This document shows positions 2,544-62,405 of a stretch of 64,000 nt of DNA, piece by piece; position 1 is the stretch's first letter; each line of letters starts with the position of its first letter. Below the pieces are notes generated by a model. It did no database searches. It was not told the origin of the DNA and was given only the letters and a program-made list of their open reading frames with translations. The position numbers and the translations under genes are program-made. Origin of the DNA: a virus; the IMG/VR virus record IMGVR_UViG_3300025815_000010, positions 15,775 through 79,774 of that record; one strand, written 5' to 3'.

Positions 2544-3002
2544 CTAACTTGATTTATCGACACCAACAGTATCCTCCCATGAACCAGAAGGGACTCTTGC
2601 TGCCTTAATTGTCGTAATACCAGCAATGACTGAAGCTGATGTTTCTTGAGAAGAATCGCTCATTAAGTAAAGCTGCGTAACTCTGAAATCTGCGGAGAAC
2701 GAACTACTAGGCTTAATCACAATGTAATTTGCATTTGGATTATTTAAACCACCAGAGGCAAAGGCGAGCCTGATGTCTGAACTAGTATGTGAATCACCCA
2801 ACTCATCATTCCTGACAACAACAAACTTGGTCACACCCGGAAAGGTGATCTTGGTGTAAGTATCGGAAGCTGACGCTGGGACATCCAGCGAAGCTGTTGC
2901 AAATGGGCGACAACTAACCTGATAACTTCCCACATGGTTAAACCCTGGTTCATGATATCCGAAAATTGGTTGCCCCGTTTTGGGGTCTGTGTTACTAGCC
3001 AT
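2544..3002 (-). CDS. Putative virion (head decoration-like) protein
   Basis: 152 aa, beta-rich and Ser/Thr-rich, in the head module. Preceded by GGAG SD and the ACTATTTA motif. Confidence 0.5.
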   Translation of the reverse strand: MASNTDPKTGQPIFGYHEPGFNHVGSYQVSCRPFATASLDVPASASDTYTKITFPGVTKFVVVRNDELGDSHTSSDIRLAFASGGLNNPNANYIVIKPSSSFSADFRVTQLYLMSDSSQETSASVIAGITTIKAARVPSGSWEDTVGVDKSS

Positions 3003-3025
3003 TAAACATCTCCGTCTTACTTAAC

Positions 3026-3033
3026 TAAATAGT
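3026..3033 (-). promoter_or_regulatory. Putative late promoter ACTATTTA
   Basis: Intergenic, 24 nt upstream of ATG 3002. Confidence 0.6.
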
Positions 3034-3042
3034 GTTAAAATA

Positions 3043-3780
3043 TTAAATATCACTAAAACCGTTTCCTGTGCTTGATCCGCCGCCAGAGGAGGCTATTACA
3101 TCTTTTACTGCAAATCCTCCTTTACCTCGCGCACCCTTAGAGCGTCTTCTGCGTCTTTTATTTCTTTTCTCTTTAGGAGTTTCCGACTCGCTGGCTGAAC
3201 CTGCGACATAAGAAACTTTTGGCCTATCAGCTACCGTACCGTAGGCAGCAGAACGAAATCTTGGACCACTCTTCGTTGCAGCAGCTGTATCGTCGTTACT
3301 ATAATCTTGTTCTGCTATAATGACGATTCTAAATTCATCCAAGTCTGCCATCGCTTGTCTGGCAGTTGCATTAAGAGTAATCTCATTTACAGACCCGTTG
3401 CTCCATGAAGAAGCCTGCTGAATTGCCGAGAAAGCAACAAAAGGGAATTCTCCCTTTCCGAAATCTCCATTAACATATTCGGCTGTGGTGCTGCCTGTCG
3501 TAGTAGAAGAGCCCTTAAGAACAATATAATTATTTTGTTTTGCTCCTGTGCTTGGCGCTGTCAATTTTAATGTCGCCGAAGCAGGAGCTACGGTAATAGA
3601 GCTAGTATCAAACACCATAAAAATTCTATGAATATCATAGGGTCCAACTGATGTCGCTATCTTTAGGCCGAGAGTAGTTGGTTCTGACGCAGTACCGGAA
3701 CTAGACTGCCTAGCAGTATTCCAAGTAGCTGCATTGTCAACTTTAATAACGGCACTATTTGATGCGGTAATATCAGGCAT
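3043..3780 (-). CDS. Putative virion protein, DNRLRE/CBM-like beta domain with Arg-rich C-terminal tail
   Basis: Likely start MPDITAS at 3780 (TAATG overlap with upstream stop). RIFMVFDTSSI...SATLKL...RPKVSY resembles DNRLRE-type domains. Tail KRNKRRRRRSK. Confidence 0.5.
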   Translation of the reverse strand: MPDITASNSAVIKVDNAATWNTARQSSSGTASEPTTLGLKIATSVGPYDIHRIFMVFDTSSITVAPASATLKLTAPSTGAKQNNYIVLKGSSTTTGSTTAEYVNGDFGKGEFPFVAFSAIQQASSWSNGSVNEITLNATARQAMADLDEFRIVIIAEQDYSNDDTAAATKSGPRFRSAAYGTVADRPKVSYVAGSASESETPKEKRNKRRRRRSKGARGKGGFAVKDVIASSGGGSSTGNGFSDI

Positions 3781-4046
3781 TAGATAGTAGTCTCCGTAAC
3801 AGACGTCAGGATTCCCCAACCTCCATTTTCTGTTTCCTCTTCAGTTGTAAAAAAATACTTTAATAAAAAAGATCTTAAAGTGGGTACCGTCTCTGTCGTC
3901 TTAGAATTTATGTCTGCCTGAAATTGACTTAAAAACTCAGATGCCGTTAGGGATCTTGCAATCCAGTCGTCTCCCTCTTGGTGTGGGTAGTCCCAAGCCT
4001 GAACAAAGCCATTTTGCCATGTAATGACAACAGAGAAAGTCCTCAT
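3780..4046 (-). CDS. Hypothetical protein
   Basis: Likely start MRTFSVV at 4046. TAATG overlaps at both ends. Confidence 0.6.
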   Translation of the reverse strand: MRTFSVVITWQNGFVQAWDYPHQEGDDWIARSLTASEFLSQFQADINSKTTETVPTLRSFLLKYFFTTEEETENGGWGILTSVTETTI

Positions 4047-4465: not shown

Positions 4466-4466
4466 T

Positions 4467-5096: not shown

Positions 5097-5118
5097 AATG
5101 AAAAAACCCCTTAAGAAT

Positions 5119-5188
5119 GCGGGCGCTACCCGCGCGAGCTACGAACCGGAACAGCAGCGTGCGACAGGTCGTAGTAACCAACTACGAC
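5119..5188 (-). promoter_or_regulatory. Structured RNA leader (multiple hairpins) upstream of the protease
   Basis: Perfect 8-bp stem GTCGTAGT-TGGTT-ACTACGAC (5168-5188) and GC-rich stem GCGGG-TAGCG-CCCGC (5119-5133) followed by ATTCTT. Confidence 0.55.
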
Positions 5189-7132: not shown

Positions 7133-9113
7133 CGGTCTTTGTCTCCATTGTTTTAAGATTTTCTAACAATCTCTCTGTTTCGTAACTTATAGAGAAAATT
7201 CTTTCTTCTTGAATGTTTTGTTCTCTCTCGTAATTAGTAGCTTCCGACGTTATACCTTTCTGGAGCGTGCTAATACTATCATGTCCGTAATATCCTGGGC
7301 CTATTGAACGCATGGTACCACCAGAAGCTGCCTCAGGCACTGCGGTCCTCGCTAGAGACTTAAGCCTTGGGCCTCTAGATTTCCTTCCATCCTGCTTTTT
7401 CTTACTTGGGTTAGTCCACCTAAAATCTTCGTCTCTTTTGCCTGGGGTTGCCAAAAGTGGGGTAGCTTCTGCCGCTTCTCCACCTCCGGTATCTGCAGCT
7501 GGCTCTGCGGCTGGCTCTGGCAAGCCACCAGCATCTTCTCCGCCTGGTTCTGCCAACGGCATATCACTTGCTCCAGGCAAGCCCTCGCCTCCCTCAAAGC
7601 CTCCTGCCATACCGGCATCCATGCCACCCGCAAGCGCACCAGCGGCTTGCTGACCAGCAGCTTCACCAACTGCGTTAAGCTCAGCCTCATACTTACGGTC
7701 GTGGTAAATCTCTCTCTTGTTACGAATAAATTCTTCCTCAGACATTCCAAAGAGATTTTCTGCGACCCAACGCTTAGAGAAGAAGCCATCAGTAGCGTTT
7801 GTTGCGACAGAGAACTTCTGATTCCAATGCTCAAGCTCTTGGATTTCTGCAATCTTAGATGGATTGTTAAGGGCAAGAGTAAAGCTGATTAGGTCTTCAC
7901 CACGGAACCCTAGTGTATGTAGGTGAACAATACCAATCTTTTCTAGCTCGGATAGGAGTGGACGCTGAAGTCTTTGCACTGTTCTCGCAAAACGGATATC
8001 TTTCTGTGCGAGAGTAGTTTTGTCTTCAGAGCCCCCCTCACCTTGGGTGAGGTAAGCAGCAGGGATCTTTAGAGCAGAGAACAACTTGTCTCTCAGATAT
8101 TTGACATCATCAATATCATGGTTTCTCTCTTGGCCCCCAACGCTTTCAATAGAAGCAAACTTTGTTCCACCACGAACAGGAATGTAATAGTCCTCTTCGA
8201 TGCTCATTGGATTGTAGCGAAGATCAACACGGCCAGTGTTCTGGTTGACTACTTGATTTCTCTTCATTGCAGTGATGACTCTCTGCATGTACTGCTCGAC
8301 ATCTTGAGGTGGAATGTTGCCGACATCAACATAGAAAGCCTTTCTGGCTGGTGCCCTAACAATACGGTATGCCATCATGGCATCTTCCATTAGTGTAAGC
8401 TGACGCCAAATACGGCGGGCTGGCTCTAGGACTGATGTTCCGTATGGGTGGTATTTATCATTCCCTAGGATACGGAAGTGAGCCATCTGCCAGTTTTCAA
8501 ATGTCATGCCTGCAGCGTTCCACTGGAACTGGATATAGTTTGGATTTGTCTTGTCTTCGCCCTCTAGCCTCTCAATCTCGTTTGGGGGGAGGCCGATTGC
8601 ATGACGAACACCATATGTTTCGTCAACATCCAAGTAAAGGAAAAAGTCTCCATACTTGCACATTGTACGAGCCCAACCAAAAAGATTAAACTTAACATTT
8701 AGAACGTCATTATAGAGACTGTCGAGAATGGCCCTAATCTCTTCGTTGGGACACTTGATCTGTAGCATTTCTGCTAGGGGAGAAGAGGTTGTCATTTCAT
8801 CTGCATAAATATCAAGAGCCGATGCAATCTCTGGCATGTATTCCATTTGGTCAGAGTCTACATATCTTTCCGTTCTATTCTGGTTCGCCATATAGTTTGA
8901 GTTCATAGACTCAAATGGATTATAATGTGACCTTTTGAATTCCTGCCCAGAGGCAGACTTAAACATATGTCCGTACTTATCAAGCTGTTGCTTGCGTATT
9001 CTGCGGCCTGTTTGTGTTCTACGGCTGACAATAGGGCCAGAGAATAACTTTGTTAGCCTCTTGTATATATCAGATGCAGGATTTCTAGGATTTCCACTAT
9101 TTTCGTCAGCCAT
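7122..9113 (-). CDS. gp20: Portal protein (T4 gp20-like) with long C-terminal extension
   Basis: PEIASALDIYADE, YGTSVLEPARRIWRQLTLMEDAMMAYRIVRAPARKAFYVDVGNIP, EEDYYIPVR, LFSALKIP, DIRFARTVQRLQ. Confidence 0.95.
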   Translation of the reverse strand: MADENSGNPRNPASDIYKRLTKLFSGPIVSRRTQTGRRIRKQQLDKYGHMFKSASGQEFKRSHYNPFESMNSNYMANQNRTERYVDSDQMEYMPEIASALDIYADEMTTSSPLAEMLQIKCPNEEIRAILDSLYNDVLNVKFNLFGWARTMCKYGDFFLYLDVDETYGVRHAIGLPPNEIERLEGEDKTNPNYIQFQWNAAGMTFENWQMAHFRILGNDKYHPYGTSVLEPARRIWRQLTLMEDAMMAYRIVRAPARKAFYVDVGNIPPQDVEQYMQRVITAMKRNQVVNQNTGRVDLRYNPMSIEEDYYIPVRGGTKFASIESVGGQERNHDIDDVKYLRDKLFSALKIPAAYLTQGEGGSEDKTTLAQKDIRFARTVQRLQRPLLSELEKIGIVHLHTLGFRGEDLISFTLALNNPSKIAEIQELEHWNQKFSVATNATDGFFSKRWVAENLFGMSEEEFIRNKREIYHDRKYEAELNAVGEAAGQQAAGALAGGMDAGMAGGFEGGEGLPGASDMPLAEPGGEDAGGLPEPAAEPAADTGGGEAAEATPLLATPGKRDEDFRWTNPSKKKQDGRKSRGPRLKSLARTAVPEAASGGTMRSIGPGYYGHDSISTLQKGITSEATNYEREQNIQEERIFSISYETERLLENLKTMETKTDEA

Positions 9114-9116
9114 TTA

Positions 9117-10697
9117 TTACCCCTTCATTAGCCAGATGAATTGTTCTTGTTGCTCTAGTGCTGTTTTCTTTTTATTATCAAAGCTATTATGCCCTAACAT
9201 GCCAGGTATGGTTGTGTCAAGTTTTTTATTTGTAGCAATCAAAGAACTAAAGAAAGCTTCTCTATATTCCATTTCCCTCTTATTTGCAGTCAATGCAGTA
9301 TCTCTTACCCAACAAGAAATTGCCAAAGACATGATAAGGTCATCGTTGTAGCCTCTCATGGCCTGTGGCTTTCCATTATTCCAAATAAAAGTCTCCATTT
9401 CGTTACATAAGCGATTCGAATGTATAATAACTAGTTTATTTCTGATAAACTCTTCCATTTTAGCAACAACTAAGGGCCTCGTCTTAGTTGTTGTGGAGAA
9501 ACCCGGAACTGAACTAGCATTAGTGTACGCCACTTCTTGCTCTATGTATTCGTGGGTTCCTTTCAACGAATAATATATATTAGAGTATCCAAGCAATTCA
9601 AGCTTCTCTAGAACAGAAATACCAATACCAATATTCTCAACAACTAAGAGGGCATTACCATACTCTTTCCCAACTTGGTCTAGGATACTAGCGTACATGT
9701 CAAGGCTTGGTTTGCCCTGATATTCTGCTACCTGCTCCATCGTAGAGACTTTGAATACGTGAAAAGCAGAACTATCTTTACCGTCACCTCTAGCAACATC
9801 TGCCACAAGTAAATAATTCTCTCCAGTTACATATCTTTCCCAGATCCAATAATTTCTATCAAAGCCTGTTCTGTAACTTGGCTCCTTGACAGTTTGTTTT
9901 ATGAAAGCAATATCGTCAGGGTGTACCACAGTTTCGCCGGATGTATTGAAGTTACACTCAAGCTCCTGTGCAATCTGGCGTCTTGACATATTTCTTGTTT
10001 CTTTCTCAAACCATTTAAGATCTCGCTCGGGATGAACATCCCATGGGAGGTTGGAGGGAAAGAAATCGTTCTCTCCTGCTTCTGCATCGACATACGTTTT
10101 GTGAAACCAGTTACCAATACCGTTTGGCGTGCTTAGGGCGATACAACGCCCACCAGTTGACAGTGTAGGGTACAGGCCCGTCCAAAGTTCCTCTAAGCCT
10201 TCGATGTGGGCAGCCTCGTCTAGAACCAAAAGTGAAAGGGCCTCCGAACGACCAGCGTCTCCAGAAGTGGATGCTGCTTTAATCTGCGACCCGTTGCTCA
10301 ATTCAAAAGAAGACCGGTTGTCAATATTAATATCAGCAATACGAATCCACTCTGGTAGATTCTTCATAATGCTTTTTACTTTCTTTACCAAGTTTGTTGC
10401 AGTCGCAAACTTAGTTGCCATAACTAATACATTTTTGTCTCGATGAAAGAGCAGAAGCCAGACAACATAGGCTGCAACAATTGTTGACAAACCAAGCTGT
10501 CTAGCTTTCAAGATAATGTTGAAACGATGATCGTTGAAGTTAACCAACATATCATCTTGATATGGGAAAGTAGTAAAGGGTATTAGACCCTCAAGGGGGT
10601 GAGAAATCCTACAGTAGTTATTGATAAAGTAAGCTGGGTCTTTGCCAGACTTTACAACCTCTTTTAAGATTTCTTTTTTTGTTAGCTGGTAAGCCAT
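9117..10697 (-). CDS. gp17: Terminase large subunit (T4 gp17-like)
   Basis: Walker A KARQLGLST, Walker B LLVLDEAAH, motif III STPNG, nuclease residues ADVARG...DDLIMS. Confidence 0.95.
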   Translation of the reverse strand: MAYQLTKKEILKEVVKSGKDPAYFINNYCRISHPLEGLIPFTTFPYQDDMLVNFNDHRFNIILKARQLGLSTIVAAYVVWLLLFHRDKNVLVMATKFATATNLVKKVKSIMKNLPEWIRIADINIDNRSSFELSNGSQIKAASTSGDAGRSEALSLLVLDEAAHIEGLEELWTGLYPTLSTGGRCIALSTPNGIGNWFHKTYVDAEAGENDFFPSNLPWDVHPERDLKWFEKETRNMSRRQIAQELECNFNTSGETVVHPDDIAFIKQTVKEPSYRTGFDRNYWIWERYVTGENYLLVADVARGDGKDSSAFHVFKVSTMEQVAEYQGKPSLDMYASILDQVGKEYGNALLVVENIGIGISVLEKLELLGYSNIYYSLKGTHEYIEQEVAYTNASSVPGFSTTTKTRPLVVAKMEEFIRNKLVIIHSNRLCNEMETFIWNNGKPQAMRGYNDDLIMSLAISCWVRDTALTANKREMEYREAFFSSLIATNKKLDTTIPGMLGHNSFDNKKKTALEQQEQFIWLMKG

Positions 10698-12652: not shown

Positions 12653-15600
12653 TTAACATTCAACAAAAGCATGACCCTCTTTTTGTTCGATAGATATCTG
12701 CATATCGACACAATCCTTTAGAGCCTCAAGGTGAGAGATCAAAAGAACGGTCTTGAAATGACTCTTAATCATGTCTAACATTCTTGTAAAGCCTTCCATG
12801 TTTTCTTCATCGAGTGCTGTGCCTGGCTCATCAAGGATAAACACATCACCTTTGGGTAGGTTTGAAACTGAAAGCATAGCAAGTCTAATTGCCATGGCAG
12901 CAATTGTTTTCTCAGCACCTGACCCCATCTCAAGAGGTCGTGACTCCTGGCCTGGGTGTTGGATATGGATATTCAATCTCTTGCCATCATCCTCAAAGTA
13001 AACGTCAAAGTCAACGATATTCATCAAGAACTTAGAGATTTCTTCATTGATTACGGGAAGCTTACTTTTAATAATATCATAGGCTATGCCATTGCTGTGC
13101 ATGCACTTGAGGTAAAGGTCGTATGCAGAATACTCCTCTTGTAGTCTGACAAGTTCTGCCTGCTGATCTCTTAGGTTCTCTATCTTCTGCTCTAAGGAGC
13201 CAAGCTTTTTGTACAAGAATTTTGCTTGATTGTCGAAGTTCTTCTTCTTTGTTTGAGCATTGGCCAGAGCAACCTCAAGGGCTCTCTTATTAGCCATGAG
13301 AGTATTTAACCCATCGATAGCTTCCTTATTAATATTATATTGTTGCTGCTTCTCCTCTAAACCTTCTATCTCAGTAATCAAATTAGAAATGATCGCTTTA
13401 TTCTTGTCGATTGTGAGCACAGCCCTATCCAAAGCTGTTTCGTATTGCGAACGCTTTGACAGCATCTTCTGATGCTTATCAAGTTGCTCCTGTGCCTCTG
13501 TGGGGTCAAGGGCATCTCGCTTCTCTTGTAATTGAGCCTTATGAGAGTCTAGCTCAGAAAGCTGGTGCTCGTTTGTAGGAATATTAGCTTTTGCGACATA
13601 AGCATCTTTAATAAACTTACAAGTGGGGAAAGAAGAACCACAAGGGATACCCTCTAGCGTTGTTGCTTGTCTTTCATTTTGCCTCTTCTCTTTTGCTATC
13701 TCGCTGATCTTTTGATTTAGTTCTTGCATAAAATCATCAATCTTAGAGCACTTATCTACTCTATTCTCATATGTCTTCGCATCAAAGTCATCGATATAGT
13801 CGGTGAATGTTTTGATAATCTCTGTATATCTAATCACCTTTTGCTCTAATTCAGTTTGCTGGTCTTGAACGGACACTAATTGGTTTCTTTTATCTTGCAG
13901 CCGCCTTGTCAAGTCAGCGATGTCGATAAGCTCAGTGGGCGTTGAATCAATCTTCACCTGAAGCAGAGCTATATCTTTGCGATACCCTTCGATCTTTTCT
14001 GCTATTGCTTTAAGCTCACCTTGCTTAGTCTTATGATCTTCGATGCATTCTTCTAGGTCGTACAGAGCTTGGTCGATATCTGCGGCATACTCTTTTCCCT
14101 CAAGTCTCTTGAGTGCTCCACGCAGATCAGATGCTTCGACTTTTGCAAACTTGTACTTTCGATCAAACAGTTCTAGGTCTAGGAACTTAGCAAAGATTTC
14201 TTTACGCTTCGTTGAGCCTTCACGAATAAAAGAAAGAGAATCCAGCTGAGAGGACATTGAGGTTAGAAGAAAATCGTCAACTGTTCCAAAAACCTTTCTA
14301 ATCTCCTTATCCGTATCGTTTCTGGTAAGGCCATTGCGCTCTGACTTAAAGCCATCAATCGACACAGACGTAAAGTTAACATCTGTCTTAGCCTCTGTTA
14401 TTTGCTGGCCCTTTGACTTCTTTGTGTATTTGTCAGACTGTCGAGTAATATTCCACACTGTTCCGTCTTCTGTGAGGATTTCTAGCACACCACGAGCATA
14501 CTCTTTATCAAAGTTAATTACATTTAGGTTTTTTCTTTCGTTCTTTGATGTGGTGTTGAACATCGTAAACAGTAAGCTATCGATAATGCTAGACTTACCA
14601 GAGAAGTTCTTTCCAAAGATGCCTACGATCCCATTCAACTTTGCAAAGTCAATGTGATTATCTTCGCCATAGTTGAACAAGTTGTCGAAAGTTAGGCTAC
14701 GAATAGCCCAATTGACATTTCTTAAGACTTCCTCTTTCTCTTCGGCCATAAGGTTATACTTGTCATTCAGTTGGAGAATCTTGTTCATGACAGAATCACT
14801 AAGATTGTAATCCGACAAAAACTCCTTAATAAGTCTTCTTTGTACCACAATATCTCGTAAATCGTCGTGACGAATATGATCTACGGTGCCAACGTCAAGG
14901 CTATTCTGGCTAATGTTTCTATTGAGAAACGTGATGCTCTCTGGCTGGTATTGGTGCTTTGCCACGTCAACAGCTTTCTTCATCTCTTCTAGAGAAATGC
15001 TCTCATTTGAGACCAACCTAATGCGAGCCCCTTTATCAACTTGATACGTCGGAACCTTGCCGCTCTGTAGTTCTAGAGTAACGAAGGGCTTTGGATTCTT
15101 AAACGTAACGCGCTTGACAGTGAAGCTATCCCTATCTTGGATGTCCCAAATGAGCATACCCTTATCTTCAGACTCTCCAAAGCCTTGCTGAACGGTTGAA
15201 CCTGCATAGCGGATCTTACCCTTCTTATCCATTGCCTGAGCTTTGTGGATGTCTCCCAAGAAGCCATAATCAAACTCTTCAAAGATTGTCACATCATGCT
15301 CACCCTTTTCCATAGTCCAGCCACTGTCCGTTTGGCAGTTAGAGATAGAGCCATGATACAAAGCAATATTAACATTATCGTAGTTTGATGGATCTTGCCA
15401 GTTGTCCTCATCGAATACAGACAGGACAGACAGCGAAAAACCATCCCTTAGATAGACCTCTTGTGAATCCTTAAGCAAGTGTAGCTTGGGGTGCTCAAGT
15501 GCTTCCACAATGGGCGTTAAGGCGTCGAGACGGCCTGTATTCTTGAGGTTGCCATCGTGATTACCAAGGATCACATATGTCGGAGCAATGTCAGCTAGTC

Positions 15601-52604: not shown

Positions 52605-52888
52605 TACTTATCGCCCTGAATCATACTGAATATATCTTCTTTATCTTCATCCGACAGACCAACGTCTTTAGATTGGTTTTTCTGAATTAGACCGGCTATC
52701 TTTACAAGCTGTTCGTTCGACCTTTGTAGCGTCTCGACATACTTTGATGCAGTTAAGCCCACCTCTCTGTGTCTGGACTCGTCCTTGCTCAAATAGCGCA
52801 CGACATCATCGAGCAAGTCTCTTGTTATCTTTCTGTCGTCTTCGATATTTGATATAGCTTTTTGTAAGTAGTGGTCTAGCTTTTTCAA
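52604..52888 (-). CDS. Hypothetical helical protein
   Basis: TTG start with GAGGGG SD; KYVETLQRSNEQLVKIA. Confidence 0.65.
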   Translation of the reverse strand: MKKLDHYLQKAISNIEDDRKITRDLLDDVVRYLSKDESRHREVGLTASKYVETLQRSNEQLVKIAGLIQKNQSKDVGLSDEDKEDIFSMIQGDK

Positions 52889-53577
52889 ATTTGCCCCTCA
52901 TCCCACCTATGCCTAAAGACTCTATATTTTGTTCTTATCTTGTTAAGATTATTGACAACTTGTTTAGTATTTAAGCCTGTGAGTTCTCTGATGTATAAAT
53001 AAATAGCCTTTTTATTGAAAATTAGATTAGGATTATCTTTGTCTTCTAATAAAATTTTAATTGCTTGAAGAACTTTTCTTTCGCTTTCCTTCAGTCTAGA
53101 GTCTTCCCAGTCCTTTATTTCTTCCCACAAAAGGTTCCAAAATTCTTCTGTTTGCCTTTGCTCATCATACTTGATAGTAGTGGAAGCAAACTGCAATTGG
53201 TTTTCTGCAGTGAGGTTATCGATATCTACCTGTCTTTTTGACTCTTTATTGGTTTTCTTTACTTTGTGAATAAACCAGTTTTTGGTAATAACGCTGAAAT
53301 AAGAAAAAGCCTTAGAGCCTTTTGCCGGATCATACTTACCTAATATCGTAGTAAGATATATCTTGCATTCGTCTCTAAGGTCATCTATGTTGGGAAGAGA
53401 AGTAAACTTGTATGTGAATACAATCTTATCAACCATTTCGCTAAAAGCTGGCTGTATGAATGTACGATACAATAGAGATCTTTCTCTGGGATCTGTTGAA
53501 TTATTATACGATATTATTGCGTTTTCATGTTCTTTTGTAAAATATAAGTTTTTTGTACGTTTACGCCTCTTCCTCAT
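52885..53577 (-). CDS. Phage RNA polymerase sigma factor (gp55-like late sigma)
   Basis: YFTKEHENAIISYN...KYDPAKGSKAFSYFSVITKNWFI resembles sigma region 2; C-terminal HTH-like segment. Likely start at 53577. Confidence 0.75.
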   Translation of the reverse strand: MRKRRKRTKNLYFTKEHENAIISYNNSTDPRERSLLYRTFIQPAFSEMVDKIVFTYKFTSLPNIDDLRDECKIYLTTILGKYDPAKGSKAFSYFSVITKNWFIHKVKKTNKESKRQVDIDNLTAENQLQFASTTIKYDEQRQTEEFWNLLWEEIKDWEDSRLKESERKVLQAIKILLEDKDNPNLIFNKKAIYLYIRELTGLNTKQVVNNLNKIRTKYRVFRHRWDEGQI

Positions 53578-53875
53578 CGTCAGACACCTCCTCGGTTTGT
53601 TCATCAAATGGTTCTGTTAGGAGAAAGATTTCTTCATACCCTCCCAGCACTTCCCTAAGTGCGTTAGAGTGCTCAAGAAGATTTGTAAGCGTTTGGTCGC
53701 CATAGAATCTCTCTAGTTCATATACAGCTTGTAGGTGTTTTGCGAAGTCATCTACAAGCTCGTACAATGAGCCAAGATTCTCAGACAGATACAGAAGATT
53801 ACTTAAGGTATTTCTAGTGTACCAGAATAAAAATACGTTTATTAGCAAAGATGCAATTAATGCAATTTCAATCAT
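53561..53875 (-). CDS. Hypothetical membrane-anchored protein
   Basis: N-terminal TM segment IALIASLLINVFLFWY. Confidence 0.6.
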   Translation of the reverse strand: MIEIALIASLLINVFLFWYTRNTLSNLLYLSENLGSLYELVDDFAKHLQAVYELERFYGDQTLTNLLEHSNALREVLGGYEEIFLLTEPFDEQTEEVSDDEEEA

Positions 53876-54110: not shown

Positions 54111-54297
54111 CGCCAAAGTCCTGATTTAATTTGACTGTTGGTGGGTTCATCACCATCAAGCCAGTCTCACTAAGTCTAAACTTGAATGCTTTCAGCACAG
54201 GCACAATGTCTGACTGTTCCAGAAGAGACTTCTGTAGGGCCATCATTAGGGCTCCCAATGCTTGGTCGCTAAGGTGCATATTGTTATCTTCACTCAT
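54097..54297 (-). CDS. Hypothetical protein
   Basis: 66 aa, TAATG-coupled, AGGAG SD. Confidence 0.6.
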   Translation of the reverse strand: MSEDNNMHLSDQALGALMMALQKSLLEQSDIVPVLKAFKFRLSETGLMVMNPPTVKLNQDFGDAEV

Positions 54298-55010
54298 TAT
54301 TCTTCTCCTTCGTCTTCAAAATTATCAATAAACTCTTGCAATTTTTCAGCGTCACTTACTCTCTCGTGGTGCAAAGAGTAATAAAGGGCGTCTACATTAT
54401 CGCTCTTGTGTCGGATTAGCCTATCTCTATGTGTTTCATCGATTTCACTCTTGTTCACAACAAAATGCATGTGTTCTGTAACAATTGGTACAGAAAAGTG
54501 TCTCATAATCATGTCAGAGACCTCGTTTAACCATGTATCATTGTAGTCACTTGAAAAATAAGGCGGCACAAAGTACCCAACTGTATCTGTCCAATTCTTA
54601 TGAATAAAACCATGCGTACCAAACCCAGGGAAGGGGTGATAGAGATCATTTCCATGAACAAACATAATGTGGTCTTCATATTGATTAAATTTATTTATAA
54701 CTTCTGTGTCCCACCCTGACGTTCTCATGATAATGTCGTCACCACAGTGAAAATAAACCTCTCCTTTGGCAACCTTCCAACACTCATTCCACATTTGACT
54801 CAGTACGATCCTTTCGCCAGAAATGTATTTAACATTATTATATATTTTTGTCAACTCATCAGACATAAATAATGATTCTAAATCATCTTCATCAATGTAA
54901 AAAACTATTTCTATATTTTCCGGCTCATTACAAGTGTCATATATAGATTTCACGAGTCTATACATATTCTCTGGTCTTTTACGGGTTGGGCATAAGACTG
55001 ATATGTTCAT
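54297..55010 (-). CDS. GT-A fold (GT2-like) glycosyltransferase
   Basis: ISVLCPTRKRP, YIDEDD, GDD, YNDTWL, EHMH. Confidence 0.8.
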   Translation of the reverse strand: MNISVLCPTRKRPENMYRLVKSIYDTCNEPENIEIVFYIDEDDLESLFMSDELTKIYNNVKYISGERIVLSQMWNECWKVAKGEVYFHCGDDIIMRTSGWDTEVINKFNQYEDHIMFVHGNDLYHPFPGFGTHGFIHKNWTDTVGYFVPPYFSSDYNDTWLNEVSDMIMRHFSVPIVTEHMHFVVNKSEIDETHRDRLIRHKSDNVDALYYSLHHERVSDAEKLQEFIDNFEDEGEE

Positions 55011-55645
55011 CTCACACTCTCCAGTACGAAAAATCCATTACCTTTTGGATAATGAGACCAATTATCCTTTATGCCTGGGACCCTATGGGAAAACTCTTTA
55101 ATGATAAAACCATTTTTCATGAACATATCTGACCACCAATTTTCATCTTCTCTTACAATATGAGTAATATCTTTTTCATACTCTGGGATGATGTACCTAG
55201 TTCCATCTCCAAGAGGAATTATGACAAATAAAGTTTTACACACTTTTGATAATTCAGATACCACAGAGTTCAAAACACTAGGTTCAATATGCTCAAACAC
55301 ATCTTTTGATATTACAAAATTAAAATATTTTTTTATGCTAGATATTGTGTGTTCATGTTCGATAAGATAAAGCTTATGTCTGATCGATGAATCAGAAGAC
55401 TCTATAGCGTAATTACTAAGGTCTGCGCCACAACAATCATACCCCAAGTGGTTAAACGCTTTAACAAGATATCCCTTAGCGCACCCATAGTCTAAAATAG
55501 TATCACCTTTTTGTATATCTAGTTTTTTTATTATTGTCTGACACATGGGGATAGTTAGTTCTGGCAGCCATCTGTAGTTTGAATATCCACTTATTCCTAA
55601 CTGAACGCCTCTCTCATAATAGTCTTGGTTATACAAATTCTTCAT
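55007..55645 (-). CDS. Class I SAM-dependent methyltransferase
   Basis: ILDYGCAKG, GADLS, DVFEHI. Confidence 0.88.
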   Translation of the reverse strand: MKNLYNQDYYERGVQLGISGYSNYRWLPELTIPMCQTIIKKLDIQKGDTILDYGCAKGYLVKAFNHLGYDCCGADLSNYAIESSDSSIRHKLYLIEHEHTISSIKKYFNFVISKDVFEHIEPSVLNSVVSELSKVCKTLFVIIPLGDGTRYIIPEYEKDITHIVREDENWWSDMFMKNGFIIKEFSHRVPGIKDNWSHYPKGNGFFVLESVR

Positions 55646-56993
55646 GCTCTAAATCCTTACCTTCGTAATCAGAAAATTTATCAATAATACCAGAATTCCA
55701 ATCGTCTAGCATATTTACATTTTCTGTGAAAACGCAGCCTTCGCAATTCTTTCTCGGGTCAAAACTCATCTGCCTAGAATCTAGAAAATCTAAAATATCG
55801 CCAGGCTTACAAAGTTGATATTGCTTTGCAAAATGTTGGTACGAATTATTTAAAACGACGCTATCGCATGGATAAACAGTACCGGGCTTACCAGTATCTC
55901 CATATGGTTCTTCGCTTAAATATGGTCGGAAATATGCTTGATGACATATTTTTGATTTTGGGGCACCATGAACTTTATATTGATGAAAAAATCTTTTATC
56001 AGAAATCTTTTCAAGTAAGATGTCCAATGACCTATGTTGTCTTATGAGGTCCTCTTGTCTAAGAAGACAATTTGGTAAAAGTCTTATATATTTAGCGTTA
56101 ATTCTATCTGCTATCGCGGAAGCTTTATTTAGGATTTCTACCCTGTCAGTTTTTTGAAGCCCATCAGCATCTTCATGTTCAACAGTGTATACCATAGAGC
56201 AGCCAACTACGCAGTCTTTATCAAGAGCAGTTGTGTCAAAATTAGCTCCTATTCTGGTTTCCCAATTTTTAAACGTATTTATGCTAACCCTAATCCACGA
56301 AAAAGCTGCTAGTGATTCTTTGTCCAACCTTTTCATTATGGTGCCATTTGTAATCAGGGCTACCGATAGACCTTTTTCATATTTAAGCCACTTTACTAGT
56401 TCATTGATATGGGGGTATGCAGTAGGTTCTCCGCCGCCTGTTAGGATAACAGCTTTTAAGCCCCTTGTCATTAATTTGGTAACATAATCCTTAATTGTGT
56501 ATAAATCCAAACGAGAGTGAGTGTCTCTATACGTAACAGAGCAGTATGGACACTTTAAGTTGCAAGCCCCTTCTGGGGAAATATGTGTTGATATGACCGT
56601 ATCTCCCCCACCATTTTTATATGATAACATCTGCTCTTGATGTTTCCAAAACTTTATACCTGTAGATGTGTACATGTGTTCCTGCTCGGACTTATCAGGG
56701 ATCTCATACTCTTGGTCAGGTAAGCCGCTCTCATAAAAAATGAATATAGAAGAATATGGTGTACCAGCAGCTGACCTATCTAAAATTTGATTTGCAATAT
56801 CAATAGTTAAAGGCTTTAGGCTGCTTTCACCATGTTCATCAATATATTCGTAATTGTGGATCTTGTTTACAATCCCACTACGATTCGATCTTCTTTCTAT
56901 AAGTATTGATCCACCTTCTACACTAAGAATAGATAAAGTGGCATCTACACCAGATATTTTTATTTCTCTTAAAGGTTCTGTTCTTTTTCTCAT
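55629..56993 (-). CDS. Radical SAM protein with C-terminal Cys (SPASM/twitch-like) region
   Basis: CNLKCPYC, LTGGGEP, ITNG, VYPC...CEGC. N-terminal extension of about 110 aa. Confidence 0.88.
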   Translation of the reverse strand: MRKRTEPLREIKISGVDATLSILSVEGGSILIERRSNRSGIVNKIHNYEYIDEHGESSLKPLTIDIANQILDRSAAGTPYSSIFIFYESGLPDQEYEIPDKSEQEHMYTSTGIKFWKHQEQMLSYKNGGGDTVISTHISPEGACNLKCPYCSVTYRDTHSRLDLYTIKDYVTKLMTRGLKAVILTGGGEPTAYPHINELVKWLKYEKGLSVALITNGTIMKRLDKESLAAFSWIRVSINTFKNWETRIGANFDTTALDKDCVVGCSMVYTVEHEDADGLQKTDRVEILNKASAIADRINAKYIRLLPNCLLRQEDLIRQHRSLDILLEKISDKRFFHQYKVHGAPKSKICHQAYFRPYLSEEPYGDTGKPGTVYPCDSVVLNNSYQHFAKQYQLCKPGDILDFLDSRQMSFDPRKNCEGCVFTENVNMLDDWNSGIIDKFSDYEGKDLEHEEFV

Positions 56994-57796
56994 AAAGTCT
57001 CCCTCAAGCTATCTGGCAAATGTTTTGGGTTGTACGGATATGCAAAAGGTATGTCAGCTTCTCTTCCAACACTTATTTCAAGATTTGTATTATTATTTTT
57101 AATATGCCAGCTAAGCCATCTATCCTCGTACCATCTTTCATTTGGGAGTGAGTCTGCTATTTTTCTAGAAAAAGCTAAAGCTGTAAGGTGTTTCCAGTAC
57201 ATTGCTTTACTGGAAACAGCAAAACCCATATTATGGACATAATAATTTGAAATTGGCATATTAGATATATTAGCTTGTGTCCCGGTACGTGGGAGCAAAT
57301 CAACAGATTTCATATTCCATAAAACAGCGCCTGTCCTATGTTTTCTCTCCGGTATCCTGAAGAGGGGACTTTTCCAGTGTTCAATCTGTCTTGAGCTACA
57401 TGTCGAAATGTTTGATCTCTCAAATTCAAAAATCATATTTTCTATTTGTCTTTGGGAAAAAACATGGTCAACTTCTGTTACTAAAATAGTGTCTGGCCTG
57501 TCGTAGTTCTTCAGCACATGATTATTTATGTATAAGGTCAATTGATTGTGAGGGGAATATGTATTTGCCTCAACCATAATGACTTTTGATGAATTTAACT
57601 GTTTTATTTTTTCAAGTATATTATCAAATTTTTTAGGAAATTTAATTAGCTCGTTAAGGTAAACGACTTCGGAAACATCTCCCCACGGTCTTGTAGAGTA
57701 AAATATAAATATTTTATCAACATATGGTTCTATTGATTTGATAGACTGTTGAATGTAGTCTTCTCCGTAGAGACACCTGTAAACTGCGTATCTCAC
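56990..57796 (-). CDS. GT-A-like glycosyltransferase
   Basis: GTG start (TAGTG overlap, GGAGG SD). EDYIQQSIKSIEPYVDKIFI, EVD, HNMG. Confidence 0.55.
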   Translation of the reverse strand: MRYAVYRCLYGEDYIQQSIKSIEPYVDKIFIFYSTRPWGDVSEVVYLNELIKFPKKFDNILEKIKQLNSSKVIMVEANTYSPHNQLTLYINNHVLKNYDRPDTILVTEVDHVFSQRQIENMIFEFERSNISTCSSRQIEHWKSPLFRIPERKHRTGAVLWNMKSVDLLPRTGTQANISNMPISNYYVHNMGFAVSSKAMYWKHLTALAFSRKIADSLPNERWYEDRWLSWHIKNNNTNLEISVGREADIPFAYPYNPKHLPDSLRETL

Positions 57797-59049
57797 TAAG
57801 CTGTCCTCCCTACAGCGATATATGTAATATCTGCGCGGGTTCTGTCTACCAACTCCATACCCCAAGGGTCAATGACCACAGAATTGCTAGGAAATACGTA
57901 GTCCTTAAACGCATCATGGTTCGTACCTATAAAAAACACAGCTGGATTTTGTAGTGGGGGATCCTCAGAGTCAATCCAAGGATCGTACATCTCTACAGAA
58001 AAATCTCTTTCTGCTAGGATATTTCTGAGAAGAATTGAGGGGCTACCTACGGTCAGATTTGTTTCCTTCTTAAAACACTTGCCCAAAATGACTATTGGAA
58101 GGTCAGTCCTACCATGAGCATCGACTATAAGCTCTGCTAGCCAATCTGTCTGTCTTTCCCTACATTCCATCAAGCTCTCGTACCAATCGTAAGAAAGATC
58201 AATCTCCCTAGCTAACCAACTAAGGGCAATATTATCTCTTGGGTGGCAGCCACCGCCATCTCCCATCCCACCTAGGAGGTATTTTGTACTAATCAACCTT
58301 TCGTTTGCCATGAAAAGACCTCTCATGACGTTATCGCAGTTGATGTTGTCCATCTTATGCGAAACTTCCATAATGGTATTGGCAAGGCAAATCTTCATGG
58401 TAATATACGTGTTATAAGAAACCTTTATCATCTCAGCTTCTTCAATCGTACACTTGTAGACCGGTCTGTCGTGAATGGTGGAATAAAACTTCGAAGCTGT
58501 TTCATATGCATTTTCGTCATCCATGCCAAACAAAACAAACTCTGGACTTGTAAAATCCTTAATTGTTGTTCCCATAGCGATGAAAAATGGATTATAGCAA
58601 AGCTTAACGTGTTTATTTAGAAGTGGTTTGATCTCTCTTCTTATCGTGCCAGGAAGAACAGTGGAAATAATAACTACAATCTTATCTTGCCCTTGGTTCC
58701 CTATCTCATCAGATAGAGTCTTGATACCAGACTTTAGCCATTCATAGTCAAAATCGACTCGCTCCTCTGGGAGTCTAGTTACGCCCTCGTACTTGGGGTG
58801 ATGAGGCGTCTGGATTGGAACAAATATAATTTCAGAGTTTCTTACCAACTCTGAAACACTGGACCACTGTATATTGTGGTTATCTAATAGTTCTTGTGCT
58901 CCCTCTTCACGATAAGGCAACACCCTAGTATCAAGAATATTCTTAACTTCTTCGCTTATATCGTAGCCATAAACTGTGTGTCCTGCTTTTTCGGAAGCAA
59001 GAGCACATGGAAGGCCAAGTTTACCCAGCCCCATAAATCCAATATTCAT
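57796..59049 (-). CDS. UDP-glucose/GDP-mannose dehydrogenase family
   Basis: GLGKLG, STVLPGT, EMIKVSYN, GGGCHPRD, YDP. Confidence 0.9.
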   Translation of the reverse strand: MNIGFMGLGKLGLPCALASEKAGHTVYGYDISEEVKNILDTRVLPYREEGAQELLDNHNIQWSSVSELVRNSEIIFVPIQTPHHPKYEGVTRLPEERVDFDYEWLKSGIKTLSDEIGNQGQDKIVVIISTVLPGTIRREIKPLLNKHVKLCYNPFFIAMGTTIKDFTSPEFVLFGMDDENAYETASKFYSTIHDRPVYKCTIEEAEMIKVSYNTYITMKICLANTIMEVSHKMDNINCDNVMRGLFMANERLISTKYLLGGMGDGGGCHPRDNIALSWLAREIDLSYDWYESLMECRERQTDWLAELIVDAHGRTDLPIVILGKCFKKETNLTVGSPSILLRNILAERDFSVEMYDPWIDSEDPPLQNPAVFFIGTNHDAFKDYVFPSNSVVIDPWGMELVDRTRADITYIAVGRTA

Positions 59050-59057
59050 AAACTCTC

Positions 59058-59897
59058 CTAATTACCTAAACAAGATAAAGTAATATTTATTATTTCTTCT
59101 TTCTTATAACGCATATGCTCAATTAAGTCAAGTCCTTTTTTTGAAAACCATTCTTCATGAACAGCGCCTACGTTATTTGTGGTTTTTGTACCCATACCCA
59201 TCATTCTGGCTTCTACAACAACCCTGGATAGGGTCTCTGGCGTCTTGGGTAAGAATACTAGCGTAGATCTCGACCCAAGCTCACGAAGAAACGTAGAGGG
59301 CTCTGAAGGCTGTATCAAGTCATACTCCAAATTCATGGCTTCACAAAAGTTAATAGCACCATGCGTATTCTTGTGATCTGTGTTCGATACCATAATTGCG
59401 TGCTTAGTCTGTCTCTGTGGGTTTTTACAGATTTCTTCTAGAAGTTCTAAGTGTCCATCTGACCATAGGTTGCCGCCTAAGCTTACAATGTTATCTAATT
59501 CAAGATTCTTTCTTGCTATATTTGCATGAAACTGGCTCTGACATAGAACAGCCTTAGCCTTTGCATAAAATTGTCTATTTATAATATCTTCTTTAGGGGC
59601 ACAATACTCTGGGTAAATGCCTGGATTTCTACCAGGGAGATACTTGTGATCGTGCTCATAAATAATATAGTTTTTACATTGTAGGTAATCTTTATTTTCT
59701 TCGGACAGATTTGCAAAATTTGAAACAATAATATTCTCATTGTAATGCAAATCCATAAGATTAACGAGGTGGCTGTTGACTCTACGAACAGTGTGGCCAC
59801 GCTTATAGAGTTTCTCCATCAAGACTTCGTTGTTTAATTCGCCTCCACCAAGCACTTGGTCAGCAAAGAAATCTGCTATAAAAAGTATTTTAGCCAT
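59058..59897 (-). CDS. GT-B-like glycosyltransferase
   Basis: GGGELNN...PETLSRVVVEARMMG. Confidence 0.7.
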   Translation of the reverse strand: MAKILFIADFFADQVLGGGELNNEVLMEKLYKRGHTVRRVNSHLVNLMDLHYNENIIVSNFANLSEENKDYLQCKNYIIYEHDHKYLPGRNPGIYPEYCAPKEDIINRQFYAKAKAVLCQSQFHANIARKNLELDNIVSLGGNLWSDGHLELLEEICKNPQRQTKHAIMVSNTDHKNTHGAINFCEAMNLEYDLIQPSEPSTFLRELGSRSTLVFLPKTPETLSRVVVEARMMGMGTKTTNNVGAVHEEWFSKKGLDLIEHMRYKKEEIINITLSCLGN

Positions 59898-61149
59898 GCT
59901 CTACCAGATTGTCATTTAACTCCTCAAGCCAAGACTGTACGTCTACCGTTTCTCCGTAGACTGAATCTGCAAAAAGCTGATGTTGTTTATCAGAATCAAA
60001 CTCTTCTAGAATCCACCTCTGCAAAGTGTCTGCTTTCTTTTTCCACTTCTTCCAACTCTTCCTTATTTGTCTTAGGCGCATTTTGTAGTGACCTTCATGT
60101 GGGTAGCACCACATACTATCCGCTTGGATCACTCCATCCCACACGGCTTGTTTCTGGACTGGGGCGATATCATAATTGACATCTGCAAAGAGAGCCTTCC
60201 TGCTTCCATTCTTGTACTTCATGTATAAAAAGTCACACTGCCCAGACCATGAAGGGGCGATAACTGGAAGTCCATGTCTCGCTGCATCAAACATGGGTAA
60301 CCCGAATCCCTCGCCATGCGAGAGGTTAATCAAAGCTTTAACCCTCTTGTTAGTGTACAGGGACTGCATTTGGCCCTCTGTCAAGTCACCATGCAGTAAG
60401 TAAATTTTGCACTTGTGCTCTTCCGGCATTGAATTCTTAATCAATGCATTCAAGGTTTTAGAGACATGCTCCCTATCCATGATCGAATTGTTTTTTACAG
60501 AAGTCTTCACAACTAATCCAACTTCTTGATCCCAATTCTCTTCTATCCACCACTTGATGGCGTTTTCTAGGTTCTTTCTTGGTCCCCACTGAGAGACGAT
60601 CAGATAATTGAAGTCATACTCTAGATTTAGCTGTAGTGGTGTTGGATCAGTGTTTTTGATTGGGTAATGCACAATATCAATTGGGACTTCACACTTAAGT
60701 GTCATTGGCTGTCTAGTAACTTTGTTCATCCCTTGATAGACAGTATTTTCAAAAACACTCTTTGCATGCTCGGATATAGTTACGATCTTATCCATCTGGT
60801 TAGCTTTTTCAAGCCAGATAGGGGCAACCTTTGTTGTCTCAATGCCCGCCGTTACGCCAATATTGTACGGCGCAAGTCTTTCCCATTCATTTGGAATAGA
60901 CACCTGTATTGACATATCAAACTGTCCACCAGATTGAGCATAATGGTGTGTTTTCATGATAAGAGAGTCAAGCCAGCGTCTCTCCTCCGTGTCTTCAGAG
61001 AGCCACCCTGTTTGGCCCCAATTTAGAGCGATCAGATAGACATCGAATCTGTCAGGCTGCTCCCTAAGAGATCTAAGTAGAAATCTTGTATGCTCTCCAT
61101 ACCCAGATTGAGTAAGTGCTGGTCCTCTGACTAAAACTTTCTTTATCAT
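59890..61149 (-). CDS. GT4-family glycosyltransferase
   Basis: SGYG, RKN, SHGEGFGLPMFDAARHGLPVIA. Confidence 0.88.
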   Translation of the reverse strand: MIKKVLVRGPALTQSGYGEHTRFLLRSLREQPDRFDVYLIALNWGQTGWLSEDTEERRWLDSLIMKTHHYAQSGGQFDMSIQVSIPNEWERLAPYNIGVTAGIETTKVAPIWLEKANQMDKIVTISEHAKSVFENTVYQGMNKVTRQPMTLKCEVPIDIVHYPIKNTDPTPLQLNLEYDFNYLIVSQWGPRKNLENAIKWWIEENWDQEVGLVVKTSVKNNSIMDREHVSKTLNALIKNSMPEEHKCKIYLLHGDLTEGQMQSLYTNKRVKALINLSHGEGFGLPMFDAARHGLPVIAPSWSGQCDFLYMKYKNGSRKALFADVNYDIAPVQKQAVWDGVIQADSMWCYPHEGHYKMRLRQIRKSWKKWKKKADTLQRWILEEFDSDKQHQLFADSVYGETVDVQSWLEELNDNLVEHG

Positions 61150-62405
61150 GCTAACTCCCTAATCTCCCATGATTCATAGCCATTTCTAGTGTCCCATGAA
61201 CCATGCTCTTCATATACCTTAGTCATTATGTCCACCCAACCTTCACAGTATTGTTGGAAGCTGTAGTTGGTTTCTACGTGCTGCCTACCCTTAAGGCCAA
61301 GCTCTCTTCTTTCTTCTCTTGACATTGCGTAAATGCGATCTAGGGCCGCGTGGAAGTCTTCTTTACTAATCCTATCCTCGTAGATATACGGAACCTGCTG
61401 AGACCCAATAATTGCTTTAGACGCTGGTTCGATACCAACACCAAACCAGTTCTCTCCATCTGTGACTTGCTCCTGTAGACCTCCCGTCATATTGACCAAG
61501 ATTGGAGTACCACACGAAAGAGATTCAAGTGTAGCTAGCCCAAAACCTTCAGCGTCGGAGATGTTAATTGTGCAATCTGCTATATTATACATATTTGACA
61601 AGACGCTTGGTGGGACCTTATTAGAAGAAATCATGATTGTGCCATCGCTACCAAGATGTTCAATAAGGTGCTGGAGTGGCTGGCCGTGTACGTCATTCGG
61701 GTCAGTATGCATGATTAACCTAACATTCTCTCTACCAACCTTGTTGGCCCATTCGTTAAACCAGAAAACTAGAGAACCGCTCTGCTTTCTTCTAGCATTT
61801 CTATTGTTCCAAAAGAATGTTACCCTCTCTGGGTTAGCACCTGGGAAGTTTTCACTTCTCATGCTTTGGATTTCGCTCTCTGTCTTTGGTGCAAAAATGT
61901 TTGGGTCAACAGCATGAGGGTGATAAACATTATGAACCTCCGGTGCAGCTTCTGATACAACCTCGTGAGTTACCTTCGAAATAGAAACTATCAAGTCATT
62001 TGATAAGTAAAATGGTCGGTTAAAGACTGGGGCAGGATGATTGTCCCACACATGATAATAGACCATTGGAACAAGCGGCCTAATCTCATTCTCCATAAAC
62101 CACAGCCACTCATAAAATCTTGGGTCTGTCATGAACCAGAGGATATCTGGCTTTTCATTTCTAATGATCGACCTTAGTTTCTGGGGATCTCCATAACCAT
62201 CAATTGGGATCACAATCCAGTCGTCTTCATAGGGAGCGATCTTTTGAGCATCATAGTTTTGATGCTTTACAGCCCCACCAAGACATATGAATTTAAACTT
62301 TCCTGTCTTTAGTAGGGCTTCAATAAAGTATTTTGTCTGCGTACCAACACCCGAAGGTGATAGGGGGTGATCCGATAAAGTCAGGATCTTTATTTTGTCT
62401 GTCAT
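61146..62405 (-). CDS. GT4-family glycosyltransferase
   Basis: PSGVG, NRNARRK, SDAEGFGLATLESLSCGTPI. Confidence 0.9.
   Translation of the reverse strand: MTDKIKILTLSDHPLSPSGVGTQTKYFIEALLKTGKFKFICLGGAVKHQNYDAQKIAPYEDDWIVIPIDGYGDPQKLRSIIRNEKPDILWFMTDPRFYEWLWFMENEIRPLVPMVYYHVWDNHPAPVFNRPFYLSNDLIVSISKVTHEVVSEAAPEVHNVYHPHAVDPNIFAPKTESEIQSMRSENFPGANPERVTFFWNNRNARRKQSGSLVFWFNEWANKVGRENVRLIMHTDPNDVHGQPLQHLIEHLGSDGTIMISSNKVPPSVLSNMYNIADCTINISDAEGFGLATLESLSCGTPILVNMTGGLQEQVTDGENWFGVGIEPASKAIIGSQQVPYIYEDRISKEDFHAALDRIYAMSREERRELGLKGRQHVETNYSFQQYCEGWVDIMTKVYEEHGSWDTRNGYESWEIRELA

Follow-up and report, generated by a model that had tools for sequence, protein, structure and literature searches.

A flanked serine motif in peripheral virion proteins of a marine T4-like phage and its possible modification by a pair of GT4-type glycosyltransferases

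The DNA analyzed here (the window) is a 64,000-nucleotide stretch of the IMG/VR virus record IMGVR_UViG_3300025815_000010 (positions 15,775 to 79,774). It forms the last 64 kb of a 79.8-kb viral contig, and all genes are on the minus strand. Two features are considered: a short serine motif, [S/T]-[G/A/S]-S, in a subset of the virion proteins, and a sugar island, which includes the adjacent glycosyltransferase (GT) genes GT4a and GT4b. An earlier note on this DNA had proposed that the motif is an O-glycosylation sequon on surface-exposed virion proteins, giving a phage-built glycan coat. PHROGs, Pfam and NCBIfam matches identified a T4-like head and tail set in the window, with the major head protein, prohead protease, portal and large terminase. 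An SbcCD-like nuclease, a primase, gp6-like and gp25-like wedge proteins, and a late sigma factor were also identified. The sheath, tube and neck adaptor are encoded on the contig's 15.7 kb upstream of the window. By portal comparison, the closest cultured phages include Flavobacterium phage immuto (39%), Microcystis phage Mel-JY01 and Rhodothermus phage RM378; the uncultured 484-kb phage LR756508 is also among the nearest. The phage is a T4-like myovirus, probably of marine Flavobacteriia.

Motif counts were compared with expectations from within-protein shuffles, for the plain motif and for a form flanked by hydrophobic residues (Phi-[ST]-[GAS]-S-Phi). Six minus-strand virion proteins together contain 87 plain sites versus 26.4 expected (z about 12), and 34 flanked sites versus about 4. 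The other 39 proteins contain 22 plain sites versus 32. The enrichment claimed in the earlier note was reproduced for all five of its proteins (39, 14, 13, 9, and 6 sites); the sixth, a head-module open reading frame (ORF) of 258 amino acids (aa), was added here. The enrichment survived both whole-protein and block shuffles. The pooled expectation stayed at 26-29 across whole-protein shuffles and 20-50-aa block shuffles; with blocks of 20, 30 and 50 aa, the plain motif was still 3.0-3.2x and the flanked form about 8x. Local composition was therefore rejected as the cause. With proteins unselected, the whole contig contains 130 plain sites versus 72 expected, and 42 flanked sites versus 11.3. 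The 152-aa and 258-aa head-module ORFs are marginal (p 0.001-0.05) and show no excess of the flanked form; the homologue of the 152-aa ORF in the complete related genome G003 is not enriched for the plain motif (2 versus 1.2).

The proteins described as motif-poor in the earlier note were indeed so, including the 2412-aa protein (3 versus 5.1), the 1225-aa protein (4 versus 4.0), and the gp6-like wedge protein, which served as an internal negative control. The major capsid protein (2 versus 1.9), the tube protein (1 versus 0.8), the portal and the gp25-like protein are not enriched either. The idea of a glycan coat was too broad, since the capsid, tube, gp6-like and gp25-like proteins all lack the excess.

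The third position of the motif is Ser-specific. The near-variant [ST][GAS]T was at 1.2x, [^ST][GAS]S at 0.96x, and [ST][GAS][^ST] at 1.0x. The strongest word was TGS (5.8x). The earlier observation of a hydrophobic residue before the motif held, and it applies to the following position as well: positions -1 and +3 are hydrophobic at 1.6x, with charged residues at 0.18-0.45x. No signal was found beyond +/-3 residues, and this context is missing in the control phages. The nine-base words and Ser codon families at the motif sites are diverse, which places the signal at the protein level; an origin from DNA words was rejected on these grounds. Known sequons are not enriched in the target proteins: D-(S/T)-(A/I/L/V/M/T) was found 19 times versus 20.0 expected, and N-x-[ST] showed no excess either. 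The patterns [ST][GA]xT, GxT[GA] and ST[AG] are likewise not enriched in this phage.

Conservation was analyzed with 80 related contigs from IMG/VR (41-90% identity). In these, the homologues found for the 2806-aa protein contain 2653 sites versus 807 expected (3.3x), and those for the 521-aa protein contain 1042 versus 248 (4.2x). The control families are not enriched in these contigs (2412-aa, 0.82x; 356-aa, 0.57x), and the gp6-like wedge family is depleted (48 versus 134, 0.36x; 82 homologues). Substitutions in orthologous columns stay in class: S and T interchange, as do G, A and S, and F and Y; the flanks are F/Y/W/I/V, and the Ser at position 3 is kept. Some sites are invariant in 121 of 121 homologues. 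At 41-48% identity, homologues still have about 12 sites versus 2.8 expected, with 5.6-7.1 at the positions of the query. The motif sites thus consist of a conserved core with modest turnover. The motif excess is a real statistical feature, and it is specific, conserved and restricted to the clade.

The motif-rich proteins of the window have homologues by the thousand in marine metagenomes. No cultured-phage homologues of the 521-aa and 2806-aa proteins were found, and the 2412-aa gene has no nucleotide match among cultured phages. As a separate observation, one of the sequences homologous to the 471-aa protein carries a label that places it in a metagenome-assembled genome of Xanthomarina gelatinilytica (Flavobacteriaceae). 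The label may point to a marine host among the Flavobacteriaceae, or reflect the binning of a phage contig together with its host.

The proteins that carry the motif are peripheral and structurally unrelated. The 2806-aa protein is a giant, baseplate/fibre-associated protein with a Laminin_G_3 (ConA-like) domain; all of its 39 sites are at residues 52-2258, and the last 548 residues contain none. The 521-aa gene is directly downstream of the gp6-like wedge gene. AlphaFold2 models of the 521-aa and 471-aa proteins were of moderate confidence (predicted local distance difference test scores of 67 and 69) and were used for secondary structure only. The 521-aa model is a chain of Ig/FN3-like beta-sandwiches with generic fold matches only; the 471-aa model has no significant fold match. 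The 386-aa protein is a paralogue-like neighbour of the 471-aa virion-module protein. The sites in the two models share no common secondary structure, and occur in loops, strand ends and strand interiors as in the background.

Motif sites were also located outside the window. At 957 aa, the sheath is roughly double the PHROG sheath model in length, with a large middle insertion. All of its 8 sites are in residues 144-611, inside the inserted region and outside the conserved C-terminal core. The immuto sheath, gp229, has 10 sites, all in residues 62-393, which also avoid the conserved core. In the neck adaptor, the sites are confined to an extra N-terminal part. The immuto protein gp169 (record positions 97614-100775; 1053 aa, annotated as tail spike) contains 60 sites. 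Many of them are TASY, SASY or SGSF units at 6-9-residue spacing, adjoining SHAEG-type fibre repeats. The motif is found in a sheath insertion, Ig-like sandwiches, a ConA-like domain and fibre repeats.

The sugar island extends from a conserved nuclease gene to the late sigma gene (Table 1). The nucleotide-sugar dehydrogenase, radical S-adenosylmethionine (SAM) enzyme, methyltransferase and late sigma factor named in the earlier note were confirmed by Pfam, NCBIfam or PHROGs. Among the five GT-like genes that it listed, the GT2 gene and the two GT4-type genes were supported; the 291-aa and 279-aa proteins are language-model leads. GT4a contains an intact E-x7-E motif (EGFGLATLE, residues 286-294), and GT4b contains the conservative variant E-x7-D (EGFGLPMFD). 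The two proteins show a weak local match to each other (E 0.001), and their genes are adjacent and co-conserved. GT4b has more than 7000 homologues, which are often fused to GT2, and many at >55% identity carry PF00534. Since the E-x7-D motif is kept and GT2 fusions occur in relatives, GT4b is probably catalytic and not a chaperone.

Table 1. Features of the window discussed in the text (positions are those of the window unless stated; motif counts are plain sites, observed versus expected).
Feature	Positions	Strand	Observation
Sheath (957 aa)	contig 7578..10451		upstream of window
152-aa head-module ORF	2544..3002	minus	motif 6 versus 1.6; marginal
258-aa head-module ORF	3043..3819	minus	motif 6 versus 2.3; non-significant after multiple testing
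1047-aa ORF	12653..15796	minus	SbcD-like and SbcC-like matches
898-aa protein	16813..19509	minus	endolysin-like domain
471-aa protein	20020..21435	minus	motif 13 versus 3.6; flanked form 8 versus 0.5
386-aa protein	21444..22604	minus	motif 9 versus 3.5; flanked form 4 versus 0.5
2806-aa protein	31507..39927	minus	motif 39 versus 13.0
521-aa protein	39924..41489	minus	motif 14 versus 2.6
gp6-like baseplate wedge protein	41489..43282	minus	motif 0 versus 1.7; internal negative control
Late sigma factor	52885..53607	minus	downstream edge of variable island
GT2-family glycosyltransferase (GT-A fold), soluble	54297..55010	minus	domain match
Class I SAM methyltransferase, small-molecule/sugar type	55007..55645	minus	domain match
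Radical SAM enzyme, 454 aa	55629..56993	minus	outside the island's conserved core
291-aa soluble protein, possibly GT2-like	56990..57865	minus	language-model lead to GT2-type cluster only
Nucleotide-sugar 6-dehydrogenase (UDP-glucose dehydrogenase type)	57796..59049	minus	TIGR03026 191.7 bits, above cut-off
279-aa soluble protein, possibly GT1-like	59058..59897	minus	language-model lead to GT1-type cluster only
GT4b, divergent GT4-type partner	59890..61149	minus	PF00534 18.3 bits, below cut-off 26.4
GT4a, soluble GT-B/GT4 glycosyltransferase	61146..62405	minus	PF00534 47.5 bits, cut-off 26.4
PD-(D/E)XK nuclease	62413..63186	minus	conserved syntenic neighbour; upstream edge of island

All 15 of the large clade contigs encode GT4a (57-79% identity), which is at least as conserved as the 521-aa protein; a close relative lacking the GTs was not found. 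The order nuclease, GT4a, GT4b, and then GT2 and methyltransferase is repeated in immuto and Mel-JY01, and GT4a and GT4b are adjacent in RM378 too. The immuto genes for GT4a and GT4b are immuto35A_89 and immuto35A_90, respectively. The rest of the island is variable. The distance from GT4a to the sigma gene is 8.8 kb in the window and up to about 26 kb in relatives. Of 55 related loci, one has a radical SAM gene upstream of the sigma gene; the 10-kb flanks taken upstream of the sigma gene mostly stop short of GT4a, the island being longer in relatives. In the complete 203-kb relative G010, the island covers about 21 kb (within 40500-65600). It contains a GT1+GT2 fusion, a GT29-like enzyme, two NeuB, a CMP-transferase and a UDP-GlcNAc 2-epimerase, together with a GDP-mannose 4,6-dehydratase (GMD), epimerases, a dehydrogenase and methyltransferases. 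The G010 island encodes a pathway for a sialic-acid-like (nonulosonic) sugar, and related phages probably make very different glycans. No transmembrane segments were found in any island protein, and the Pfam families matched in the islands of the window and G010 include no flippase, polymerase or lipid-carrier priming transferase. From its gene content, the sugar island looks cytoplasmic, soluble-only and hypervariable.

Two further ORFs of the window lie outside the island. The single 1047-aa ORF matches SbcD-like (residues 1-347) and SbcC-like (residues 210-1041) phage families, and appears to be a fused gp47/gp46-type nuclease. The 898-aa protein, encoded between the resolvase and primase genes, has an endolysin-like domain at residues about 290-430, and may be a virion-associated or hub lysozyme.

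Co-occurrence of the motif with the enzymes was analyzed in 12 whole phage genomes, using one ORF caller and one statistic, with GT4a and GT4b identified by profile searches. The flanked motif reached 3.1-4.4x only in the five genomes that carry both GT4a and GT4b: this contig (3.7), G003 (3.7), immuto (4.4), Mel-JY01 (3.3) and RM378 (3.1). It was at 0.75-2.0x in the other seven. Two of these have a GT4a-type gene only, LR756508 (1.1) and the Tetrasphaera phage TJE1 (2.0); neither gene is found in RsoM2USA (1.0), T4 (0.75), phiMAM1 (1.1), S-PM2 (1.7) and HTVC008M (1.7). LR756508 has synteny and many structural genes in common with the window and encodes a GT4a homologue at 305432-306748, without GT4b and without motif excess, and is thus a natural near-control. 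TJE1 is an independent lineage with a distant GT4a-like gene, and its enrichment is not significant (8 versus 4.1).

The sheath orthologues show the same pattern. Those of this phage, G003, immuto and Mel-JY01 have 8-13 sites versus 3-4 expected, and those of LR756508 and RM378 have 1-2. Since the latter are nearly motif-free, the motif is not required for the sheath fold. Six G003 genes are common to immuto, Mel-JY01 and RM378 and missing in four control phages; GT4a, GT4b and both members of the 386/471-aa family are four of these six clade-signature genes. The co-occurrence suggested in the earlier note therefore tracks GT4a plus GT4b, within what is essentially one branch of the phage tree in which RM378 is weak.

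These results suggest that the motif might be a phage-written O-glycosylation sequon, served by GT4a and GT4b and by the variable sugar island. This is the preferred reading, and its chances are judged to be about even. A fuller version is held more tentatively, at somewhat less than even chances. Here, GT4a and GT4b would form a sequon-reading protein O-glycosyltransferase system that is core to an abundant marine T4-like lineage; the sequon would be previously undescribed, and would carry variable glycans (up to sialic-acid-like) on the tail, baseplate and fibres. Literature searches on glycosylation in this phage lineage found nothing.

The motif statistics, conservation, location and GT4a+GT4b co-occurrence were computed; the chemical steps, the acceptor residue and any role for the glycan are proposals that build on them, as follows. 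The acceptor site would be (hydrophobic)-[S/T]-[G/A/S]-S-(hydrophobic/aromatic), a short linear sequon in peripheral virion proteins. Its carriers would be the outer sheath domain, the neck-protein extension, the baseplate-periphery proteins, the giant fibre-like protein and the 386/471-aa family. Late in infection, the soluble cytoplasmic GT4a/GT4b pair might recognize the site and add a first sugar to a Ser hydroxyl, most likely that of the invariant third-position Ser. The downstream variable enzymes (two GT2-type, one GT1-like, the methyltransferase and the radical SAM enzyme) would extend and decorate the glycan, and the nucleotide-sugar dehydrogenase would supply a uronic acid. Because the island varies among relatives, these phages would bear the same sites with different sugars. 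The sequon on the virion surface proposed in the earlier note is thus favoured by conservation, by the location in peripheral proteins and the outer sheath, and by the GT co-occurrence; the marginal 152-aa and 258-aa ORFs do not strengthen it.

Several observations weigh against the sequon reading. Each 521-aa homologue keeps about 7-12 sites in position, and site turnover elsewhere is just about 1.5x chance with a +/-3-residue tolerance, which would also fit a structural or assembly role. The major capsid protein is surface-exposed but not enriched, and the hydrophobic flanks might place the sites partly buried. Proteome-wide avoidance of the motif in non-target proteins was not seen relative to the control phages. 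Although both enzymes are encoded in RM378, its sheath and 416-aa orthologues show no enrichment, and a weak excess lies in other proteins. The five phages with both enzymes form one clade, so that the co-occurrence is close to a single evolutionary event. GT4a and GT4b match generic GT4 families only, and no specific protein O-glycosyltransferase family.

In the main rival reading, the motif serves structure or assembly in the peripheral virion proteins of this lineage, and the sugar island acts elsewhere (for example on the host envelope or a soluble glycoside). A Ser/Thr pair at a beta edge or in a loop could make hydrogen bonds between subunits, or the motif could be where an assembly chaperone docks. 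This role remains the main rival because many sites are fixed and hydrophobic-flanked; some are invariant, and such flanks are typical of beta structure. The modest turnover and the RM378 orthologues are also in its favour, and the dense 6-9-residue TASY/SASY periodicity of immuto gp169 resembles a fibre repeat. However, the sites share no secondary-structure context and no extended sequence signature, and they occur in unrelated folds. In LR756508, RM378 and T4, the orthologues of the sheath and baseplate proteins manage without the motif, and motif density follows the presence of GT4b. The island also lacks the export or lipid-carrier machinery that envelope glycans would need. The structural role is considered rather unlikely, but more probable than the other rivals.

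The motif might instead be the target of a different modifying or processing enzyme, acting for example by phosphorylation, acylation, ADP-ribosylation, radical-SAM chemistry or methyl chemistry. Its shortness and its invariant Ser are enzyme-like and would suit such a reaction, and a radical SAM enzyme and a methyltransferase are encoded in the same island. However, the radical SAM gene does not share the conservation of the motif, as the related loci described above show, and is absent from the annotated immuto island. Moreover, no kinase or transferase other than GT4a and GT4b is found among the six clade-signature genes. This explanation appears improbable.

Two other roles for the sugar island are disfavoured. 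One is glycosylation of the phage DNA. In a published liquid chromatography-mass spectrometry analysis, the DNA of the cultured relative immuto contained dA, dC, dT and formylated 7-deazaguanine (fdPreQ1) only, with no glycosylated base (doi 10.1101/2023.04.13.536721). The ThyA-type hydroxymethylase family (PF00303) was unmatched in the complete G003, G009 and G010 genomes and in Mel-JY01; a search for TET/JBP was also made, in which the control genomes themselves gave no signal. The other is synthesis of an envelope polysaccharide of the Wzx/Wzy or ABC type. This is disfavoured because the gene set is all-soluble, with no transmembrane segment, priming transferase, flippase or polymerase. The weakest explanation attributes the enrichment to composition, to low complexity (Ser/Gly-rich fibre regions) or to the choice of proteins by hand: the enriched proteins are Ser/Thr-rich (10-15% Ser) and fibre proteins of control phages show a mild plain-motif excess (HTVC008M, 24 versus 10), but the block shuffles, the unselected whole-contig totals, the unenriched near-variant [ST][GAS]T and the lack of the flanked form in control phages make it very improbable.

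If the sequon reading is true, virion glycosylation would extend beyond the mycobacteriophages and belong to the core traits of a marine phage lineage that is abundant worldwide. It would provide a new, simple and predictable O-glycosylation site with a soluble enzyme pair, and exposed virion proteins and domains might be predicted by sequence alone. Models of the tail, baseplate and fibre surface would change with respect to adsorption, stickiness in marine gels, protease resistance and host recognition. The hypervariable sugar islands of many large marine phage genomes would also be explained. The cultured relative immuto makes the idea directly testable, and gp169 would be the best single substrate.

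The proposed system might be compared with several known ones. The general O-glycosylation of Bacteroidota uses the sequon D-(S/T)-(A/I/L/V/M/T), and is periplasmic and lipid-carrier dependent. The likely host belongs to the same phylum, and the motif would be a short Ser/Thr sequon too, but the Bacteroidota sequon is not enriched here (19 versus 20.0). Flagellin and pilin islands, as in Campylobacter and Aeromonas, are hypervariable and often contain nonulosonic-acid genes; they direct cytoplasmic O-glycosylation of many exposed Ser/Thr residues in a hydrophobic context. The G010 island, with its two NeuB, CMP-transferase and GT29-like genes, is similar to these. Unlike the flagellin islands, a Maf-type transferase was not seen, the island of the window is without nonulosonic-acid genes, and the acceptor would be the virion and not a filament.

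GtfA/GtfB, which act on serine-rich-repeat adhesins, and SdgA/SdgB, which act on Ser-Asp repeats, are soluble cytoplasmic protein O-glycosyltransferases of the GT-B/GT4 type. GtfA and GtfB are an adjacent paralogue pair, and such enzymes glycosylate many Ser residues in S-x-S contexts like SAS. The tandem SASY/TASY arrays of immuto gp169 resemble these acceptors. However, sequence matches do not support placing GT4a and GT4b in these families: the SdgA model NF047880 gave 20.5 bits (E 1.5e-4) versus a cut-off of 800, and the PDB entries of SdgB (7ec1) matched at E 0.41 only. Most sites here are also single and inside folded domains, and GT4b is probably catalytic.

The chlorovirus PBCV-1 glycosylates its capsid with virus-encoded, host-independent soluble enzymes at non-canonical motifs on N-linked Asn (PMC5408694, PMC9614988). 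Among solved structures, the chlorovirus GT4 enzyme B736L (PDB 3oy2) is one of the best matches to GT4a. PBCV-1 is a eukaryotic giant virus modified at Asn of its major capsid protein, whereas the present case would involve O-linked Ser on phage tail and baseplate proteins.

Self-glycosylation of phages is reported to be established in mycobacteriophages only, at the C-termini of capsid and tail-tube proteins and with the chemistry shown (as cited in PMC12619734). In the Che8-type mycobacteriophages, phage GTs are thought to modify their own virion proteins in the cytoplasm, giving a surface glycan (Freeman et al. 2023, cited in PMC12619734, PMC11256854). Like these phages, the window phage encodes GTs (three Pfam-supported and two leads). 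Unlike them, it is a T4-like myovirus with a hypervariable sugar island, known from sequence alone. The mycobacteriophage sites are at the capsid and tube C-termini, whereas the capsid and tube proteins here are unenriched, and the candidate sites form a dispersed five-residue motif in the sheath, neck, baseplate and fibre proteins.

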